Source: Candidatus Parcubacteria bacterium (GTDB taxonomy: Bacteria; Patescibacteriota; Minisyncoccia; UBA6257; 2-01-FULL-56-20). Taken from it: a DNA stretch of 64,000 bases. Under the pieces are notes generated by a model. The model saw only the letters and a program-made list of their open reading frames with translations. It was not told where the DNA came from and did not search any database. The stretch is taken from the NCBI GenBank assembly GCA_027450205.1, contig DAIDJL010000004.1:11932-75931 (forward strand), given 5' to 3'. Shown here one piece after another: positions 4,871 through 42,000 of this stretch. Each line of letters starts with the position of its first letter. Position 1 is the stretch's first letter. The translations under genes were made by a program, and so were the position numbers.

Positions 4871-5014
4871 AAAAGGATTATATCAGAAATCAAAAAGACC
4901 GTTCTTTCGAACGATCTTTTTGAAAATGGTGCTTGCGGCACCACGCTAGGCTGCCACCTTGATATCCATAGTACTCGGATCTCTATGGACGTCAAGTTTA
5001 AGTTCGTGCCAACG

Positions 5015-5086
5015 TTGACCGGTGGGGAGTCGAACCCCAAACTGCCAGGTGGCAGCCTAGCCGTGATACCGTTTCACCACCGGCCC
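5015..5086 (-). tRNA. tRNA-Gly(GCC)-like gene with aberrant anticodon arm (possible pseudo-tRNA) and structured 3' trailer
   Basis: Minus-strand read GGGCCGG-TG-GTGA-AACGGTA-TCAC ... TGGGG-TTCGACT-CCCCA-CCGGTCA-A gives canonical acceptor, D and T arms. The anticodon stem CTAGG/CCTGG encloses a 6-nt loop CTGCCA containing GCC, one nucleotide short of canonical. No CCA is encoded. Confidence 0.4.
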
Positions 5087-6000: not shown

Positions 6001-6639
6001 CTATTTCCCGTGCTGGAATTCCGTTCCCGGCTTCCATGGCACGCCGAGCCAGGGGAGCAGCCACCGGTCAATGCCGAGCCAGCCGGCGTTGCGCCAGGCG
6101 AGGATCAGGAATAGTTGGATCAAAAGGAGAAAGGGATTCGTGCTGACGGTGCCGGCGAATAAATAATTGAGGTTCATGAATGCGCCGAAGAACGCGGCGA
6201 TGCCGGTGAACGCGCCAAGCACGAGTCCGATGCCGACGGCCAGTTCGCCGAGGGTGATGATATACGAGAACGTCGCGGCATGGGGGATCGCGACGTTGCT
6301 GATGAACCATGCGTACCATCCCGCCACTGCCGGATTCGATCCTGCGGCTTTTGCGAGCGCGCCCTTCAGAAACCCGCTGATCGCCGTCCCCGCGTGCGCG
6401 CCGACCCATGCGGCGTTTGTCATCTTTTCCCATCCCGCCATCACCCATTCGTAGCCCACGTAGAGGCGGAGCAGGAGCCATACCCATGCTACGCGTGTGT
6501 CTGCGAATAAAAACTCCGCAATTTTCGGTTCGGGGATTACGACCGCTTCGTGCAATGGGCTTTCAGCCATGGAGTTATCATACCATAGATTGTGCGGTTT
6601 GCATGGGCGAGACAGCCGCGACGGCGGGAGCGTCGTCAC
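6001..6639 (-). CDS. DoxX-family membrane protein
   Basis: Four predicted TM helices with DoxX-like composition (WVWLLLRLYVGYEWVMAGWEK ... FLLLIQLFLILAW). The true start is possibly the internal MAESPL. Confidence 0.55.
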   Translation of the reverse strand: MTTLPPSRLSRPCKPHNLWYDNSMAESPLHEAVVIPEPKIAEFLFADTRVAWVWLLLRLYVGYEWVMAGWEKMTNAAWVGAHAGTAISGFLKGALAKAAGSNPAVAGWYAWFISNVAIPHAATFSYIITLGELAVGIGLVLGAFTGIAAFFGAFMNLNYLFAGTVSTNPFLLLIQLFLILAWRNAGWLGIDRWLLPWLGVPWKPGTEFQHGK

Positions 6640-8728: not shown

Positions 8729-8956
8729 ATGAGCCGAAGATCGCCCGAACAATCCTTTCAGCCGGAGCAGGGGAACCTTTTCCCCGACGATCCCGAGTTT
8801 TTGGCGATCATGGAATCGGTGCGAAAGGCGAATCCGCAGACATCATTTTCCAAAAATGACGAAGCATTGAAACAATTGGCGGAGATCGAATGGGAGCGCC
8901 GAAAATCCGGCAAGCGGATGCCGCGATCCGAGGAGCACGACCATTTTCTTGATTGA
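8729..8956 (+). CDS. Hypothetical small acidic protein (75 aa) upstream of prfB
   Basis: The in-frame ATG at 8729 lies just 3' of tRNA-Thr. The track start at 8702 overlaps the tRNA and is unlikely. No family is recognised. Confidence 0.35.
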
Positions 8957-8969
8957 TTTTTAAAAAAAC

Positions 8970-10011
8970 ATGGACCACTCAGAACAACTCAACGAATTGG
9001 ATGCCGAAGCTCGCCGGTTGGGCGAGCGTCTTTGACCTCGGCGCAAAACGAAAGCGGATCGCGGAGCTTGAGGCGGAAATGTCATCCGCCGGTTTTTGGA
9101 GTGACCGCCAGAACGCGGATGCAAAGATACAGGAGCTCGGCGAATTGAACGACGTCGTCTCCCGGTGGAGCGATATCCGGACCGGCATCGCCGGGCTCGG
9201 GTCCGCGTTTGATGAAAATAGTTTCCATGATGTTAAACGCAAGTTCCGCGAATTCGAGCTGACGCAGCTTTTCGCCGGTCGTTATGACAAGCAGGCCGCG
9301 GTGCTTGCGATCTATCCGGGTGCGGGCGGCGATGATGCCTTGGACTGGGCGCGGATGCTGGGCGTTATGTACGAGGGCTACGCGAAGCAGCGCGGGTGGA
9401 AGGTGCGTGAAGTGGATGACAATCCGCGTTCGCGCACGATCGAGATCACCGGCCCGTACGCATATGGTTATTTAAAGAACGAATCCGGAGTGCACCGGTT
9501 GGTGCGCATTTCGCCGTTCAACGCGAAGCATTCGCGCGAGACGTCGTTCGCGCTCGTGGAGGTGGTGCCCGATCTGCCGCAGCTCGACGAATCGAAATTG
9601 CAGATCCCGGAAAGCGATCTTAAATTCGAATTTTCCCGCGCCGGCGGTCCGGGCGGCCAGAACGTGAATAAAGTGGAGACGGCGGTGCGCGTGATCCACG
9701 TGCCCACCGGCATCGCGATCAGCTCGCGCGCCCAGCGCTCCCAACAGCAGAACCGCGAGCAGGCATTAAAAATATTGAAGGCAAAGCTTTTTCAATTGAT
9801 GGAGCGGGAAAAAGTGGAAGAGGTGGGTGCGTTGCGTACGAAAGTGAAGCCGGAGTGGGGAAGTCAGATCCGTTCGTACGTATTAAACCCATATCAGATG
9901 GTGAAGGATCACCGTACCGAAGCGGAAACGGCGCGCGTGGATGACGTGCTGGCGGGAAATATCGATATGTTCATAGAAGCGATGTTGGAGCAACCGAAGC
10001 TTGACAAATAG
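8970..10011 (+). CDS. prfB: Peptide chain release factor 2, with programmed +1 ribosomal frameshift
   Basis: ATG at 8970 opens a 21-codon frame [21 protein letters not shown] that ends at the canonical CTT TGA C shift site (9030-9036). The +1 frame continues [14 protein letters not shown] through to the conserved GGQ motif ([13 protein letters not shown]). The six-frame track's TTG start at 8953 is an artefact of the frame switch. Confidence 0.9.
9030..9036 (+). other. prfB +1 programmed frameshift site CTT TGA C
   Basis: Sequence cgtCTTTGACctc. The 0-frame stop is TGA, and the +1-frame GAC begins the RF2 body. Confidence 0.85.
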
Positions 10012-10206
10012 CCATATTATGGCATATAATATATTCGAAGATTAGAGCCCTTTTACAGTCATAAAATCAATTGAATTAATGGTTTGGTTGCGGCCCTTGG
10101 CGCGTAGAAGCGTATGCGTCGCGGGTCGCAACCAACCCCGGAGGAACATCATCCGAAGCAGCGCGATGTTCAGGGACTTGGACGGCAGAAAAAGGAGGAC
10201 TTGCGC

Positions 10207-10884
10207 ATGAAAAACGCAACCCTTGAACAAGGAATGAAAGTGCAGAAAATGATCGTGGATAAAGGAACGCCGGACGAGCAGCTCCAGTGGACGCTGGAAT
10301 CGGGGGCGTTGTCCGACCTCTTCGATGCGAACCCCATAGAGTTCAACCGCGATGCTTTCCGGGCGTTTCTCGGCCTCAAACCGTTGAACCCACCGGCTCC
10401 GCCACTCCTCATTCCTGTCGGCACAACGACCGTGGCCGCAACGACGAATCCGTTCGTCGTCCGCGACCGCATCGTCGTGAATACCCCGAAGAACGCGCCC
10501 GTGAAGATTTACTTCGTGAGCGACTACTTCAAGCAGTGCTTCTACGGAAAGACGGAAGAGGCATTCGGGGGATCGACGCTTAACTATGGCAAGCTCTCGC
10601 GCTCGTCCGTGGATGGCCCGATCATCGCTGAACTCGGCGGCAAAGCCAAGGCAGAGACCACCCTCACCGAGGTCTATGCGCTCATGGAAGTGCAGAAGAA
10701 CGGCGAGAAAGATCCTCTGCTCACCAATGGTTACGCGAACATTTTCTATGTCCGTGACATCAATGGCGTGCTCCGCGCGGTCGTCGTGTACTGGAACGGC
10801 GTCGGCTGGCGCGTGGACGCGGACGGCGTCACGCACCCGGGCGCGTGGGACGTTGGCGACCAGGTGTTTTCCCGCAATTCTTGA
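10207..10884 (+). CDS. Hypothetical protein (no recognisable family)
   Basis: Strong RBS AAAGGAGGA 8 nt before the ATG at 10207, preferred over the track start at 10114. The C-terminus is ...VVVYWNGVGWRVDADGV. The gene ends at tandem hairpin terminators. Confidence 0.6.
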   Translation: MKNATLEQGMKVQKMIVDKGTPDEQLQWTLESGALSDLFDANPIEFNRDAFRAFLGLKPLNPPAPPLLIPVGTTTVAATTNPFVVRDRIVVNTPKNAPVKIYFVSDYFKQCFYGKTEEAFGGSTLNYGKLSRSSVDGPIIAELGGKAKAETTLTEVYALMEVQKNGEKDPLLTNGYANIFYVRDINGVLRAVVVYWNGVGWRVDADGVTHPGAWDVGDQVFSRNS

Positions 10885-10945
10885 AATCTTGAGTACCTTG
10901 GGTTCTACGATTTTTTTAGAACCCTTGGACTCTTCAACCCTTTGA

Positions 10946-10986
10946 CCCTCGCATCTTTTTCGGAAGGAGCGAGGGTTATTTTTTTT
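10946..10986 (+). terminator. Intrinsic terminator
   Basis: Hairpin CCCTCGC ... GCGAGGG followed by a T8 run. A second hairpin GGGTTCTA ... TAGAACCC sits just upstream, followed by a TATACT -10-like box. Confidence 0.6.
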
Positions 10987-10998
10987 GCTATACTATGC

Positions 10999-11328
10999 AA
11001 TGAAAGCTCGCATACGGAACGGTCATGGCTTTTCCGTCGCGCTTTTAGAAAACTATTCTGCCGGAATCGCGCCGGGTACGCCTTGCGCGAGTGCGTGAAT
11101 CGGTTTCTTTCAAAAATTCAAGAAATGGATAATATTCTAGCGCTTCGCGATGATTTGCGAAATGGCACATATCGGCATGGCGGCTATCAGGCATTCAACA
11201 TTTCCGACCCCAAGCCGCGGAATATCCACAAGGCATCGGTGCGTGACCGCCTATTACCCCCCCGCGACCAGTCATTAATTCTTATAAGGGAATGCTTAGC
11301 CACGGCAATGCCTATAAACAAACATTAA
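10999..11328 (+). pseudogene. N-terminal fragment of a retroelement reverse transcriptase, DGR-type RT-like, truncated
   Basis: The translation ...ILALRDDLRNGTYRHGGYQAFNISDPKPRNIHKASVRDRL matches the N-terminal/motif-1 region of retroelement RTs (consensus G.Y..G.Y..F.I.(D/E)PKPR.I....(F/V)RDR(L/V)). This is closest to diversity-generating-retroelement RTs as recalled. The frame stops 10 codons after RDRL. No RT motifs 2-7 (YxDD etc.) exist downstream, and there is no usable ATG. Confidence 0.5.
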
Positions 11329-11380
11329 ATCTTCCTTAAAAAGTTTTTGACTTTGTTTTTGTGGAGATTATGCTTGTTGT

Positions 11381-11749
11381 ATGAAAAAAACAAAACTAAC
11401 AAAGAAGAAAATGACGATCGAGGATCTGGCAGTAAAAATGGATGGATTAGCGACCAAAACCGATCTAAAAATAGACGAGTCTGTAGGCAGTCTGGCCATT
11501 ATGGTTCAGAACGGCTTTATGGAAACCGCAAAACAAGAAGATCTACTTGCACTTACCGAGCGTGTCAAAAAAATAGAAGAACGTCTTGATGGGCATGATA
11601 AGGAATTTAAGGGCATGCATCAAAATTTTGACGATTTATTTCAAAAGATCAAAGAAATAAGAGAGGATATGAAGGAAGCCGACAGTCGCGCCGACGTGGT
11701 AGACCTGCAGATCCGCGTAAGCAAACTCGAAAAGAAAATTCGTTCATAA
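11381..11749 (+). CDS. Hypothetical coiled-coil protein (K/E-rich, 122 aa) in an AT-rich insert
   Basis: Strongly helical heptad-like sequence. GC is markedly lower than the surroundings. The TTGACT -35-like box lies upstream. Confidence 0.55.
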   Translation: MKKTKLTKKKMTIEDLAVKMDGLATKTDLKIDESVGSLAIMVQNGFMETAKQEDLLALTERVKKIEERLDGHDKEFKGMHQNFDDLFQKIKEIREDMKEADSRADVVDLQIRVSKLEKKIRS

Positions 11750-11773
11750 TATTTTCAAAGAATATTGTATTTT

Positions 11774-11888
11774 GGGCTCATCCCTTTATCTTTTAAAAGG
11801 CGTCTCGGAGCCGCGAGGGCGGCGAGAGCCGAGGCGCGCACTCAGCAGAGGGTGATGACGTACTTTTAAAAGATAAGAGGATGAGCCC
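11774..11888. repeat. Hairpin-flanked structured repeat, copy 1 (26-bp imperfect inverted repeat arms around a ~55-nt conserved GC-rich core)
   Basis: Arms GGGCTCATCCCTTTATCTTTTAAAAG / CTTTTAAAAGATAAGAGGATGAGCCC. The core CGGAGCCGCGAGGGCGGCGAGAGCCGAGGCGCGCACTCAGCAGAGGGTGATGACG recurs at 49.7 kb with compensatory changes. Confidence 0.6.
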
Positions 11889-11927
11889 TGGTGGGATATT
11901 TTTTTAAAATAGTGTATCATTAAGTAC

Positions 11928-12611
11928 GTGATCGTTTTCCAGGGAGTTTCCAAGCATTATACGGGCCACGGGGTCGCACTTGAGGATGTTGATTTCCAGA
12001 TCGACCCCGGAGAATTTGTTTCTCTCGCCGGCCGCTCGGGCGCCGGAAAGTCCACTATTATAAAGTTATTGATTGGAGAGGAAAAACCGTCAAAAGGACG
12101 CGTTTTTTTCGGGCAATATGAGGTGAACAAGCTGCAGGACAACGAACTACCGGCATTCCGGCGCCACATCGGGGTCGTGTTCCAGGATTTTCGCCTGCTT
12201 CCCACCAAGACCGCGTATGAAAACGTTGCGTTTGCGCTTGAAGTTGCCGGCCGGCCCCAGCGGGAGATCGCCGAGCTTGTGCCGCAGGTATTGGATATGG
12301 TGGGCCTGGGAGACAAGACGAAGAATTTCCCCAACGAACTTTCCGGCGGAGAGCGCCAGCGCGTCGCGATCGCACGTGCGATGATCCATCGCCCGGAGGT
12401 CGTTATCGCCGACGAGCCCACGGGCAATCTCGACCCATTCCACACGTTCGAGATCATTAAGCTGTTGGAAAAGATCAACCAGCTTGGCACCACGGTGGTG
12501 CTTGCCACCCACGACAAGGAGATCATCAATACCCTTGAGCGACGGGTATTGACGCTGGACAAGGGCCGCCTCATTCGCGACGAGAAAAAAGGAAAATATA
12601 TCCTGGTCTGA
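11928..12611 (+). CDS. ftsE: Cell division ATP-binding protein FtsE
   Basis: Walker A GRSGAGKST, ABC signature LSGGERQR, Walker B VVIADEPTGNLD. High similarity to E. coli FtsE. GTG start. Confidence 0.9.
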   Translation: MIVFQGVSKHYTGHGVALEDVDFQIDPGEFVSLAGRSGAGKSTIIKLLIGEEKPSKGRVFFGQYEVNKLQDNELPAFRRHIGVVFQDFRLLPTKTAYENVAFALEVAGRPQREIAELVPQVLDMVGLGDKTKNFPNELSGGERQRVAIARAMIHRPEVVIADEPTGNLDPFHTFEIIKLLEKINQLGTTVVLATHDKEIINTLERRVLTLDKGRLIRDEKKGKYILV

Positions 12612-24402: not shown

Positions 24403-25059
24403 ATGATTCCTCCCAAAGACCTTCCGCGCCTGCGCGCCCGGTGGCGCAAGATTTCCCGCACGCTTGGCAGGCTTTTTCCGCATCCCAAGATCGCGCTCAC
24501 GTACGGCAATGCGTGGGAACTGCTCGTGGCGGTTCAGCTTTCCGCGCAGTGCACGGACAAGAAAGTGAATGAGGTGACGCCCGCGCTGTTCAAAAAGTAC
24601 CGGACGCTCGACGCGTATGTGCGCGCTGGCAGGACGGCGGCCGGCGTTCGCGCGTTCGAAGCGATGGTGAAGCAGACCGGATTCTATCGCGCGAAGACGC
24701 GCAACATTCTCGCGGCGGCACGCGTGGTCAAGGAAAAGTTCGGCGGCAAACTCCCGCGCACGATGGCGGAGATGGTGACAATCCCGGGCGTCGGCCGCAA
24801 GTCGGCGAACGTCATCCTCGGCAACACCTACGGCGTGGTGGAGGGGATCGCGGTGGACACGCACGTGATGCGCCTGTCGCGCGTGCTCGGCCTCTCGCGC
24901 GAAAAGACGCCGGAGAAGATAGAGCAGGACCTGATGGCCATCATCCCGCGCAAGGATTGGTTTCGCGCCACGTACATGCTGATCGACTACGGCCGCGCCT
25001 ACTGCGTGGCACGCCCGCACAAGCACGAGCTGTGCCCGCTGACGAAAGTGGTGGGGTAG
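24403..25059 (+). CDS. nth: Endonuclease III (DNA glycosylase/AP lyase)
   Basis: HhH-GPD motif IPGVGRKSANVIL, catalytic Lys/Asp context, and C-terminal 4Fe-4S cluster C-x6-C-x2-C-x5-C (CVARPHKHELCPL). Confidence 0.9.
   Translation: MIPPKDLPRLRARWRKISRTLGRLFPHPKIALTYGNAWELLVAVQLSAQCTDKKVNEVTPALFKKYRTLDAYVRAGRTAAGVRAFEAMVKQTGFYRAKTRNILAAARVVKEKFGGKLPRTMAEMVTIPGVGRKSANVILGNTYGVVEGIAVDTHVMRLSRVLGLSREKTPEKIEQDLMAIIPRKDWFRATYMLIDYGRAYCVARPHKHELCPLTKVVG
24985..25059 (+). repeat. Direct repeat copy A (3' end of nth)
   Basis: The 72-75 nt segment GACTACGGCCGCGCCTACTGCGTGGCACGCCCGCACAAGCACGAGCTGTGCCCGCTGACGAAAGTG... is repeated at 25869-25940 with 3 mismatches over the shared ~66 nt. Confidence 0.8.
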
Positions 25060-25775: not shown

Positions 25776-25868
25776 AAGGCATGCTTCCTTTCAAAGGGCT
25801 GTTGGGCCGGATCCCGTTTGGATTGGGCTTAGGTATGGTTTATCAGAAAAATTGCGGGATGGCAAATG

Positions 25869-25940
25869 GACTACGGCCGCGCCTACTGCGTGGCACGCCC
25901 GCACAAGCACGGGCTGTGCCCGTTGACGAAGGTGCTCTAG
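25869..25940 (+). repeat. Direct repeat copy B (duplicate of nth 3' end, encodes DYGRAYCVARPHKHGLCPLTKVL*)
   Basis: Near-identical to 24985-25059. Lies ~810 bp downstream on the far side of the pyrE-like gene. Confidence 0.8.
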
Positions 25941-39078: not shown

Positions 39079-42000
39079 ATGAGGCAACGATTTCTATCCA
39101 GTCGCATAGCCCATTTTGTTCTGTCTGGAGCCGCCACTTTGCTTGGCGGTTTTCTTTTTCTTCTTCCATCAGCGCAGGCAAGCACCATAAACGTTATAAG
39201 TAATATTACGACGAGTACAACATGGGTTGCGAGTAATGTGTACGTTTTTAATAACAACCTGATCGCAATTCAGTCCGGGGTTACCCTTACCATCGCAAGC
39301 GGTACTGTTGTGAAATTTAACGGCACATCTTCAGGATTGACGGTTGACGGTACATTGCAAGCTAATGGCGCAGCCGGAAATCAAATTTATTTTACTTCCG
39401 TTAATGACAATTCAGTGGGTGGGACTATTAGTGGATCGACAGGGAGTCCGGCCGCTGGTAATTGGGCCGATATCGGGATTGCTTCAGGGGGTATCGCAAA
39501 TATAACCGACGCAGTGGTTCGCTATGGGGGATCTTCAAGCGGGGGGTCTGCGGATATCAATCAGTCCGGCGGGGTGCTTACTGTTTCAAGCACGCAAATA
39601 GCGACAAGTACGTTATATGGTTTGTATATATCTGCCGGAACCAGTACGGTTGAAACGAGCACGTTTACCACAAATGGTTTTTATGGATTCTATGAGACCG
39701 GCTCTGCCTCGCTCACTCTCACGAGCAGCACGTTTTCTCAAAACGACTTCACGGGTTATGTTAATTTTGGAAGCGGCGCTACGTTTATCCCTTCTGGAAA
39801 TTCCGCTTCTGAAAATATTACCGAAAACGGTTATGACATTTTAGGAACCCTTACCAAAAACGAGACATTATATGATGACGGTGTTCCTTATGTCATTGGC
39901 TATAACAATGGCGTTGGGGTCACTATTGCACCAGGGACGTCTCTGACTATCAATCCCGGTACGATTATAAAATTTCTTAAAGTCAGCTCCGCTGCTTATA
40001 TTGATGTAAAAGGCATCCTCAATGTTCAAGGAACATTAACCAACCCAGTATATTTTACCTCGATCAAAGACAACTCTGTTGATTCTGGGACGGGGGGGAG
40101 CACTACATCCACCCCGGGCTTGGGCGATTGGGGAAGTATTGAAATTGATCCCGGGGCAAGTACAACGATTATGAATGCTATCATTCGTTATGGTGGTGCT
40201 ACAGGGTCTGCATATTACAATTCTGCCGATATCGACATAGCGGGAGGCGTTTCATCACTCTCTTCTGTAACGGTGGCATCGAGTAGTAATTATGGTATTC
40301 AATCCACCGCTGGAACGATAACTATTTCAAGTAGCACCATCAGTAGTAATGGGGCATCGGGAATCTACGCATATAGCTCATCCGGCACTATTAATATTTC
40401 GAGTAGCACTTTCGCTAATAACGGTGTTGATGCGGCATTGATTAATTTTACGAGCGCCGTTACCTTTGTTCCTTTAGGGAATACTGCGTCAGGTAATGGC
40501 GAGAATGGGTATGATATCCGCGGGACGTTAAGCACGAACGAGACTTTATACAATGACGGCATTCCTTACGTTATTGGCTATAACAATAATGATGGTGTCA
40601 CTGTTGCCTCAGGGACCACACTTACCATCAGTAGTGGAACGGTCATAAAGTTCTTGCATCAGACTACGGCGTCGTTTCTGGATATAAAGGGACGCTTAAA
40701 TGTTCAGGGAACACCAACCAACAAAGTTTATTTTACCTCAATTAAGGACAACTCAATCGATCCCGGTACTGGCGGGAGCACTACGTCTACTCCAGGTCCT
40801 GGCGATTGGGGACGTATTGAAATTGATTCTGGTGCAAGCACAACAATCAACAATGCTTTCATTGGGTACGGCGGCTATTCCTTGACTCCCGCGACCGATA
40901 TTTACCAAGCGGGAGGTGTTTCAACTATCATTAATTCGCAGATCGCTGATAGTTTAGATGATGGCATCAATATAAACGGAGGAACATCGACTATTACACT
41001 CTCCGAATTTAATGGCAATGGGCATGGTGGAATTTATATGAATGGCGGGATGATCACGATTTCAACAAGCAGCATCCAGGGAAACGTCACTTACGGAATG
41101 TACAACGGTGATAATGTTACTTCCACCGCCATTGCCGAAAATAATTGGTGGGGATCAACAACTGGCCCGACGAATGCCGCGAATCCTGGAGGCACAGGCG
41201 ATGTGGCGTCATCATATGTTGATTTTAATAACTGGCTCAATTATTCTCCGGTAAACGGAACTACAACTTTAAGTAATCTTATGCAGTATAAATCGGATGC
41301 GACAACAACGCTTAGCGAGGGGAGCTCTACCACCGAATCAATTATAGTGTTCGGTGCAAAACTGCAATCATTAGCTACAAGTACAGAAAGCCTTCAAGTG
41401 GAAGTTGAACCAGTGGGTACTATGTTTACCAATACCGTTACCGTATCCAGCACTTATGTGGTTCCCGGAAGCAATGCGACGGCAACATTCCCACTTGTGG
41501 ATACTCGCGAGATCAGCGGAAATGGAAGCTATCATTGGCAGGCGAGGGTAACTGATCAATTGGGAGATACTTCCGGATGGCAATTGTTTGGGCCGAACTC
41601 AAGCTCTACTGATTTCAAAATTAGTGCGGTGCCACTTTATACACAGGTCACGTCGACCTACCCTTCGCCTTCTGCAACTACGGGGACTGTCTGGTGGGCA
41701 CCTCAATTATTAGATGGTATCGCCACAAATACTATCGCCGGCTTCGGCTGCTTAATTACATCTGTGACGATGGACCTTCGATCGTATGGGATAACAACCA
41801 CTACAATGCAAAGTTATATGAGTAGTACCGATGTTAATCCTGCGAACTTAAATGATTGGCTTGAGATGGCAAATAGTTCTGGTACGGGTTATTTCCCGGC
41901 GGGAAGTGGTCTTATGAATTGGCAGGACATCCCTTACTATTCCGAAACTCCATCAGGCACGTTTAGAGTTTGGTATAACGTTACTACCGATCATATATCT

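Follow-up and report, generated by a model that had tools for sequence, protein, structure and literature searches.

The closest described relatives of the locus analysed here are diversity-generating retroelements (DGRs) of Patescibacteria/CPR. A cellular DGR clade limited to Patescibacteria ('DGR clade 2') was reported by Roux et al. (2021; PMC8144416), and the cassette order TR-(avd)-RT, in which TR is the template repeat and RT the reverse transcriptase, was designated Architecture B3 by Wu et al. (2018; PMC5758913). According to the latter study, about 10% of DGR-bearing complete genomes hold multiple DGRs, and some targets are non-adjacent. In Bordetella phage BPP-1, whose DGR consists of Brt, Avd, TR and the variable repeat (VR) of Mtd, a hairpin is located downstream of the VR (Guo et al. 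2011; PMC3240598). Also among the closest known systems are TvpA of Treponema denticola and the other DGR variable proteins with a C-type-lectin fold. In the literature, no description was found of decay in this Patescibacteria DGR clade.

The window, by which the whole analysed stretch of 64 kb is meant, contains a region that is very probably the remnant of a chromosomal DGR of the Patescibacteria clade, gutted by two deletions with its target gene left intact. Membership in that clade is the assignment to which host annotation and cassette architecture point. Intact orthologues share RT motifs, a reverse-strand bAvd gene flanked by TR and RT, a TR/VR pair, and a small target gene with the VR at its 3' end; the copy in the window differs from these in having no TR, no avd and no catalytic part of RT, and is thus a relic. 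With the BPP-1 element the locus has in common the adenine-specific TR-to-VR logic and a hairpin after the VR. It can be observed that the two differ in several respects: the order is avd-TR-brt on one strand in BPP-1 and TR-(avd)-RT in the clade of the window; the target is a phage tail-fibre protein in BPP-1, whereas here it is a 225-aa protein without a Pfam domain in a chromosomal context; and, in the clade of the window, the TR is preceded by a conserved structured leader.

Following established DGR biology, the intact element would have operated in several steps. A promoter located past the terminator of the target gene would produce a leader-TR RNA, and RT together with Avd would copy the TR into cDNA with misincorporation opposite template adenines. 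The cDNA would then overwrite the VR at the 3' end of the gene for the 225-aa protein, and this rewriting would diversify a ligand-binding surface that is probably C-type-lectin-like. In the window, deletion 1 took TR, avd and RT codons 1-35 from this machinery, and deletion 2 RT residues 80 to ~293. Because of the two deletions, and because the RT pieces are out of frame, the element has lost all capacity for diversification. Its VR stays fixed as it last was, and the target gene is still intact. Former activity of the element, the promoter role and the lack of a helper DGR elsewhere in the genome are components of this explanation that we infer.

Comparison with an intact syntenic cassette

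Related loci are given here by L numbers. In L011 (JGI 3300041809), the order is prfB, target, TR, bAvd (reverse), RT (318 aa), a 128-aa coiled-coil ORF, ftsE, ftsX, CAP and atpB. The order in the window is prfB (8953-10011), target, RT scraps, coiled-coil ORF, ftsE (11928), ftsX (12642), a CAP-like gene and atpB, and the target proteins of the two loci are 70% identical at the amino acid level. Four blastn matches connect them:

Window 8970-11128 with L011 3747-5915, 81%: prfB, target and spacer
Window 11125-11252 with L011 6631-6758, 87.5%: RT codons 36-78
Window 11280-11394 with L011 7423-7538, 87%: last RT codons, intergenic sequence and start of the coiled-coil ORF
Window 11895 onward with L011 7898 onward: ftsE and beyond

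The intact orthologous cassettes have a TR/VR pair of 110-120 nt and are situated in a chromosomal, not a phage, context. Mismatches between their own VR and TR fall on TR adenines at 23 of 23 positions in L011, 22 of 22 in L007 and 20 of 21 in L010. From the synteny with L011 and these adenine mismatches it follows that the ancestral locus was a complete DGR of the order target(VR) - leader - TR - (avd) - RT. The features of the present locus are as follows:

10207-10884, forward strand: DGR target (variable-protein) gene, intact, 225 aa (mechanical ORF start at 10114)
10768-10884, forward strand: VR, orphaned, at the 3' end of the target gene, encoding ..VLRAVVVYWNGVGWRVDADGVTHPGAWDVGDQVFSRNS and the stop
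10900-10924, forward strand: short hairpin after the VR and stop codon, GGGTTCTA / TAGAACCC, read from the sequence
10946-10986, forward strand: terminator-like hairpin with T-run (CCCTCGC ... GCGAGGG), after the target gene
10986-10994, forward strand: extended -10-like box, TGCTATACT, with TATACT at 10989-10994
10999-11124, forward strand: non-coding leader of the former DGR RNA, with hairpin 1 at 11014-11037 and hairpin 2 at 11059-11097
11125-11128, forward strand: junction of deletion 1, ~715 bp lost, equal to L011 5916-6630 (TR, bAvd and RT codons 1-35)
11125-11256, forward strand: RT relic 1, residues 36-79 of a 318-aa DGR RT, with motif 1 and the start of motif 2
11257-11263, forward strand: C7 run at the junction of deletion 2, ~640 bp lost, equal to L011 ~6763 to ~7400
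11264-11339, forward strand: RT relic 2, frame 3, last ~24 codons (residues ~295-318) with the native stop TAA at 11337-11339
11381-11749, forward strand: coiled-coil ORF of 122 aa, a resident gene and not part of the DGR

Remains of the reverse transcriptase

Relic 1 is read in frame 1 as MDNILALRDDLRNGTYRHGGYQAFNISDPKPRNIHKASVRDRLL. Within the window, two members of the RT family match it by tblastn with E-values of 7e-23 and 4.5e-22, and a search of 5.8 billion proteins returned 224 homologues, the best at E 2.3e-17, with identity of up to 86% over 44 residues. Each of the 224 matches is an N-terminal part of a single, strongly conserved RT family, and the labels of several name Parcubacteria or Patescibacteria as the source. 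Such E-values are far beyond chance, and the RT-like fragment that had been claimed in an earlier note on this DNA is therefore real. The same note held that the first ~80 residues survive, which has to be corrected: the sequence at 10999-11124 is leader, and the survivors are RT residues 36-79 and the last ~24 with the stop. A reading of 11000-11124 as an RT N-terminus with a frameshift near 11080, which was considered for its weak likeness to 'ENLLEAW..GKR..DVQEF', was rejected because this stretch is collinear with the non-coding spacer of the relatives and, in addition, contains hairpins that covary.

Relic 1 is 87.5% identical in nucleotides to L011 6631-6758, with 42 of 44 residues identical. 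The differences comprise 17 synonymous and 2 non-synonymous changes (omega 0.02, dS 0.92); this predominance of synonymous changes implies that purifying selection acted for the greater part of the period after divergence from L011, and hence that the deletion is comparatively recent. Relic 2 lies in a frame-3 reading (11253-11339) that ends in ..RPVINSYKGMLSHGNAYKQTLNLP before the stop, the L011 counterpart being RPTIASYKGILSHGNAYKQTLNFP, likewise followed by a stop. Its region has nucleotide identity of 87% to L011 7423-7538 and 94% to L015. The two relics, in frames 1 and 3, are mutually out of frame.

Both junctions were placed by comparing the left and right register of the assembled window with L011. 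At junction 1, to which the lost TR maps, the left side in L011 reads AAGAATTGG and the right side CTTATGGAT, with a microhomology of 3-4 nt, TGG / (A/T)TGG. Deletion 2 removed the fingers, palm and thumb with all catalytic motifs, including LGNLTSQ and YADD. The earlier statement that the frame dies in a C7 run agrees with the end of RT homology at 11257-11263, and the statement that no fingers or palm motifs occur downstream is upheld by the absence of YADD and LGNLTSQ, and of a second RT by tblastn, from the window; complete catalytic motifs of the forms YxDD and [I/L/V]GxxxSQ (motif 4) are missing from the window copy. Inactivation by an adjacent AT-rich insertion, as had been proposed, does not agree with the alignment. 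The 3' end of RT, its stop and the intergenic sequence are kept at 87% to L011, the ORF at 11381-11749 is the positional homologue of the post-RT ORF in L011 (tblastn E 9e-12) and L009 (E 6e-12), and the damage consists of two internal deletions.

Regarding the type of RT, the closest solved structure to the family is PDB chain 8ub7 (328 aa), named 'Reverse transcriptase', which we take to be the Brt of the Bordetella phage DGR. It is matched at E 1.8e-18 by the N-terminal homologue P0034 and at 1.9e-46 by residues 2-293 of the L011 RT, compared with E 5e-10 and about 1e-22, respectively, for group II and retron-type RT structures. The DGR-typical LGNLTSQ and YADD are present in the RT orthologues of L011 and L002. 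In L001 and L002, two contigs with close homologues, RT adjoins a Pfam bAvd gene and a ~200-aa gene whose 3' end repeats nearby sequence with mismatches at adenine positions. A cassette was counted as verified when its VR/TR mismatches were confined to adenines; the RTs of such cassettes are orthologous to the fragment, and 8ub7 is closer to the family than group II and retron-type RTs are, so that the fragment is of DGR type by descent. On the evidence of homology, then, the scrap is a dead RT of DGR type, which is also what the earlier note had made of it; its orthologues lie in cassettes with bAvd and an adenine-specific TR/VR pair.

In profile searches of the fragment, which had been suggested as a check, PADLOC returned a match to its generic 'RT' profile only, at E 2.5e-4, and in Pfam and NCBIfam the 128-aa mechanical ORF at 10942-11328 had no RT match, because the RT fragment is too short. 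For members of the family, the DRT/UG profiles of PADLOC scored far below the generic RT profile. In Rfam, no intron or retron RNA was found in 10700-12000, nor any match at all.

As a separate observation on this family, the otherwise intact RT genes of two ENA assemblies, L001 (6001-6814) and L002 (6001-6989), are split in two ORFs by apparent frameshifts, and many of the family's database 'proteins' comprise no more than 72-181 aa from the N-terminus. Contig ends, assembly errors and genuine decay have probably all contributed to these short or split entries.

Target gene, variable repeat and leader

The 225-aa target protein has no Pfam match. It has 781 homologues, of which those that are named come from Patescibacteria, and one NCBI entry is 100% identical. 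Across relatives, the target gene outside the VR has an omega of 0.15-0.23, and the VR has a dN/dS of 0.9-2.2 at low dS. The earlier note had suggested a possible target at some other place in the genome; in fact the gene directly upstream is the target, and its VR is intact. No target paralogue was found within the 64-kb window. When the target proteins of L001 and L002, which belong to a different target family, were compared with the window by tblastn, nothing significant was obtained, and a W-rich match at 6034-6102, inside the membrane-protein ORF 6001-6639, was dismissed as chance.

The own TR of the window being lost, the VR was compared with the TRs of relatives. It aligns at 74-80% to those of L011, L003, L005 and L010. 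Against the L011 TR, 19 of 22 mismatches lie at TR adenines (p 2e-8), and against the L003 TR, 20 of 26 (p 2e-7). A VR with adenine-specific mismatches at the 3' end of the target gene is thus found at 10768-10884, and the comparison with the TRs of relatives points to past DGR activity on it. The hairpin after the VR has an 11-nt insertion in the window copy compared with relatives, in which a GGGTC-NNNN-GACCC hairpin occupies the same spot. By analogy with the hairpin of Guo et al. 2011 (PMC3240598), it may represent the target-recognition hairpin of the DGR.

The searches for TR, avd and RT covered 64 kb, from a contig that is at least 320 kb long. No TR was found in the 64 kb: over 103 nt, even the best A-tolerant non-self match to the VR carries 29 or more non-A mismatches, the TRs of relatives match nothing in the window but 10768-10889 by blastn, and self-blast of the window revealed no adenine-biased repeat pair. 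The earlier report that the window lacks a TR/VR pair consequently stands for the TR and falls for the VR, which occupies the 3' end of the upstream gene. Relatives carry a Pfam bAvd between TR and RT; in the window, no avd was found with Avd of L001, L002 and L011 as tblastn queries (best E 0.16). As TR, avd and a further RT are absent from the 64 kb, the element is non-functional within the window.

One repeat pair was considered as a TR/VR candidate, namely the 69-nt direct repeat 24982-25050 / 25866-25934, with 94% identity and copies 884 bp apart. It was rejected since its four mismatches are not adenine-specific, and it probably reflects paralogous genes.

Downstream of the target gene, the terminator-like hairpin and the TATACT box that follows it, both of which had been pointed out before, are kept in relatives. 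A consensus scan missed the hairpin because its loop is 16 nt long. The box is kept in L003, L005, L009, L010, L011 and L007 as TGnTATACT, TGCTATAAT or TGATACAAT, and this conservation makes TGCTATACT the probable promoter of the leader-TR RNA. The leader is collinear up to 11128 with the VR-TR spacer of six relatives, including L003, L005, L009, L010 and L011, with nucleotide identities to the spacers of relatives of 77-87%. Its hairpins show covariation: 99% of the cells from 21 distinct sequences are paired, and double-change cells number 46, compared with 15.7 in shuffles and at most 9 in slid controls. The leader with its box and hairpins (10986-11124) also occurs in L003, L005, L007 and L009-L029, and it is kept in every decayed locus seen. 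We know of no 5' leader of such a kind for DGR RNAs. It could act as a 5' element that the DGR RNA requires, or as a transcript in its own right.

Loss of the cassette in relatives and competing explanations

A metagenome scan with the leader motif added 18 loci, and the state of each cassette was called by tblastn and blastn. Intact cassettes are present in L005/L006, L007, L010, L011, L012, L018, L021, L024 and L026, and three more are cut by contig ends. One result of the leader-pattern scan, L020, was a chance match without homology to the cassette and was discarded. The following loci are altered:

L009: syntenic; TR nucleotide ~20 fused to the last RT codons
L013: post-TR sequence fused to RT residue ~227
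L015 (VFSW01165608.1): leader fused to RT residue ~283
L003: only the last ~26 codons of avd left, then a recombinase-like ORF
L023: leader, then a different TR-like remnant, then bL25; no RT downstream

In L023, an asparagine-rich TR-like sequence of another class (..NANRNDDGRWLDAYYDNPDNRWDRDNGFAF) lies at 1127-1414 on the reverse strand in place of the usual TR, and there is no RT within 1.4 kb.

The junctions in the window, L009, L013 and L015 all differ, implying independent losses. Positions 1-2339 of L015 correspond to window 9012-11367, with 94% nucleotide identity both in prfB and in the flank 3' of RT; the target allele has 31% amino acid identity and the leader 74% nucleotide identity to the window. 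From these uneven identities, the cassette appears to have been exchanged between close relatives.

Three other explanations of the locus were weighed against a DGR remnant with two deletions. If the local RT, TR and avd were dead and the VR were diversified in trans by another DGR outside the window (a 'remote VR'), the intactness of the VR, its 3' end, the post-VR hairpin and the target ORF would be accounted for, and multiple DGRs and non-adjacent targets have been reported (Wu et al. 2018; PMC5758913). We regard this as improbable, given that the 64 kb hold no TR-like sequence, RT, avd or target paralogue, that Patescibacteria genomes are small, and that the cassette is a single local unit in relatives. 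The possibility that the fragment derives from a non-DGR retroelement, such as a group II intron, a retron or an Abi/DRT defence RT, beside an unrelated gene draws on the shortness of the 44-aa piece, which reaches no further than motif 1 and the beginning of motif 2, common to several RT classes. The lack of a Pfam match, the generic PADLOC match and the label 'retron-type reverse transcriptase' on some homologues speak in the same direction. Against it stand the 87.5% nucleotide orthology to the RT of a complete DGR at the same chromosomal locus, the much greater closeness of the family to 8ub7 than to group II or retron-type RTs, and the low DRT/UG profile scores relative to the generic RT profile, which together leave it scarcely any probability.

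An assembly or sequencing artefact would mean that the genome contains an intact DGR and that mis-joining or read collapse produced the 'deletions'. A metagenome-assembled genome is the probable source of the window, one of the two junctions coincides with the C7 homopolymer, and in other assemblies (L001, L002) apparent frameshifts often divide the RT genes of the family. However, the junctions lie away from the VR/TR repeat, where collapse would be expected, and the 715 and 640 bp lost are far beyond a homopolymer miscount. Three assemblies from other samples have differently placed deletions of the same cassette, and L015, a 94%-identical relative, has a degraded cassette at the same locus; independent deletions in relatives argue against an artefact in the window, and we consider one very improbable. 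Intact and deleted alleles may coexist in a mixed population.

Taken as the remnant of a DGR that died by two deletions, the locus is an ordinary pseudogenised DGR of a known kind in a known state of decay, and its value is mainly comparative. It provides a base-pair-resolved case of the death of a chromosomal DGR, in which deletions at microhomology and at a homopolymer spared the target, and several relatives lost the same cassette independently. It further brings to light a conserved leader RNA with covarying hairpins, which precedes the TR in this CPR DGR clade. For annotation, it demonstrates that an 'orphan' VR can be recognised via the TRs of relatives, and that mechanical ORFs spanning the VR-TR spacer should not be taken as RT N-termini. 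Each time, the deleted loci kept the target gene with its VR in a frozen state, and also the structured leader RNA and its probable promoter. Recurrent and adaptive loss of the mutator, as distinct from random decay, is conceivable, in that lineages may 'lock in' a selected receptor variant through loss of the DGR, or the leader RNA may have a role of its own. We hold this to be rather unlikely; the loci were found via the target gene or the leader, so that their retention is partly a matter of ascertainment, and this bias weakens the adaptive reading.

The neighbourhood of the relic yielded several minor observations. The coiled-coil ORF has a GC content of 0.40, compared with 0.47-0.49 in its orthologues and 0.54 for the window, and its protein is 34% identical to the positional homologues, compared with 80-87% for the flanking DNA; this composition and divergence suggest allele replacement or fast evolution. 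Between this ORF and ftsE, at 11774-11888, lies a palindromic element of 115 nt, the 26-nt arms of which have 2 mismatches. Folded as RNA, it reaches -73.2 kcal/mol (z -7.4). The window contains one copy; the element has no Rfam match and is missing from the syntenic L009 and L011. It may be a small insertion or a MITE-like element. Further away, ARAGORN called a tRNA with a two-base 'anticodon' (gc) at 5014-5086 on the reverse strand; the call may be false, or the tRNA may be unusual or contain an intron. A direct repeat of ~435 nt at 39761-40196 / 40442-40874, with 72% identity and a distance of 678 bp, probably reflects tandem paralogous genes.
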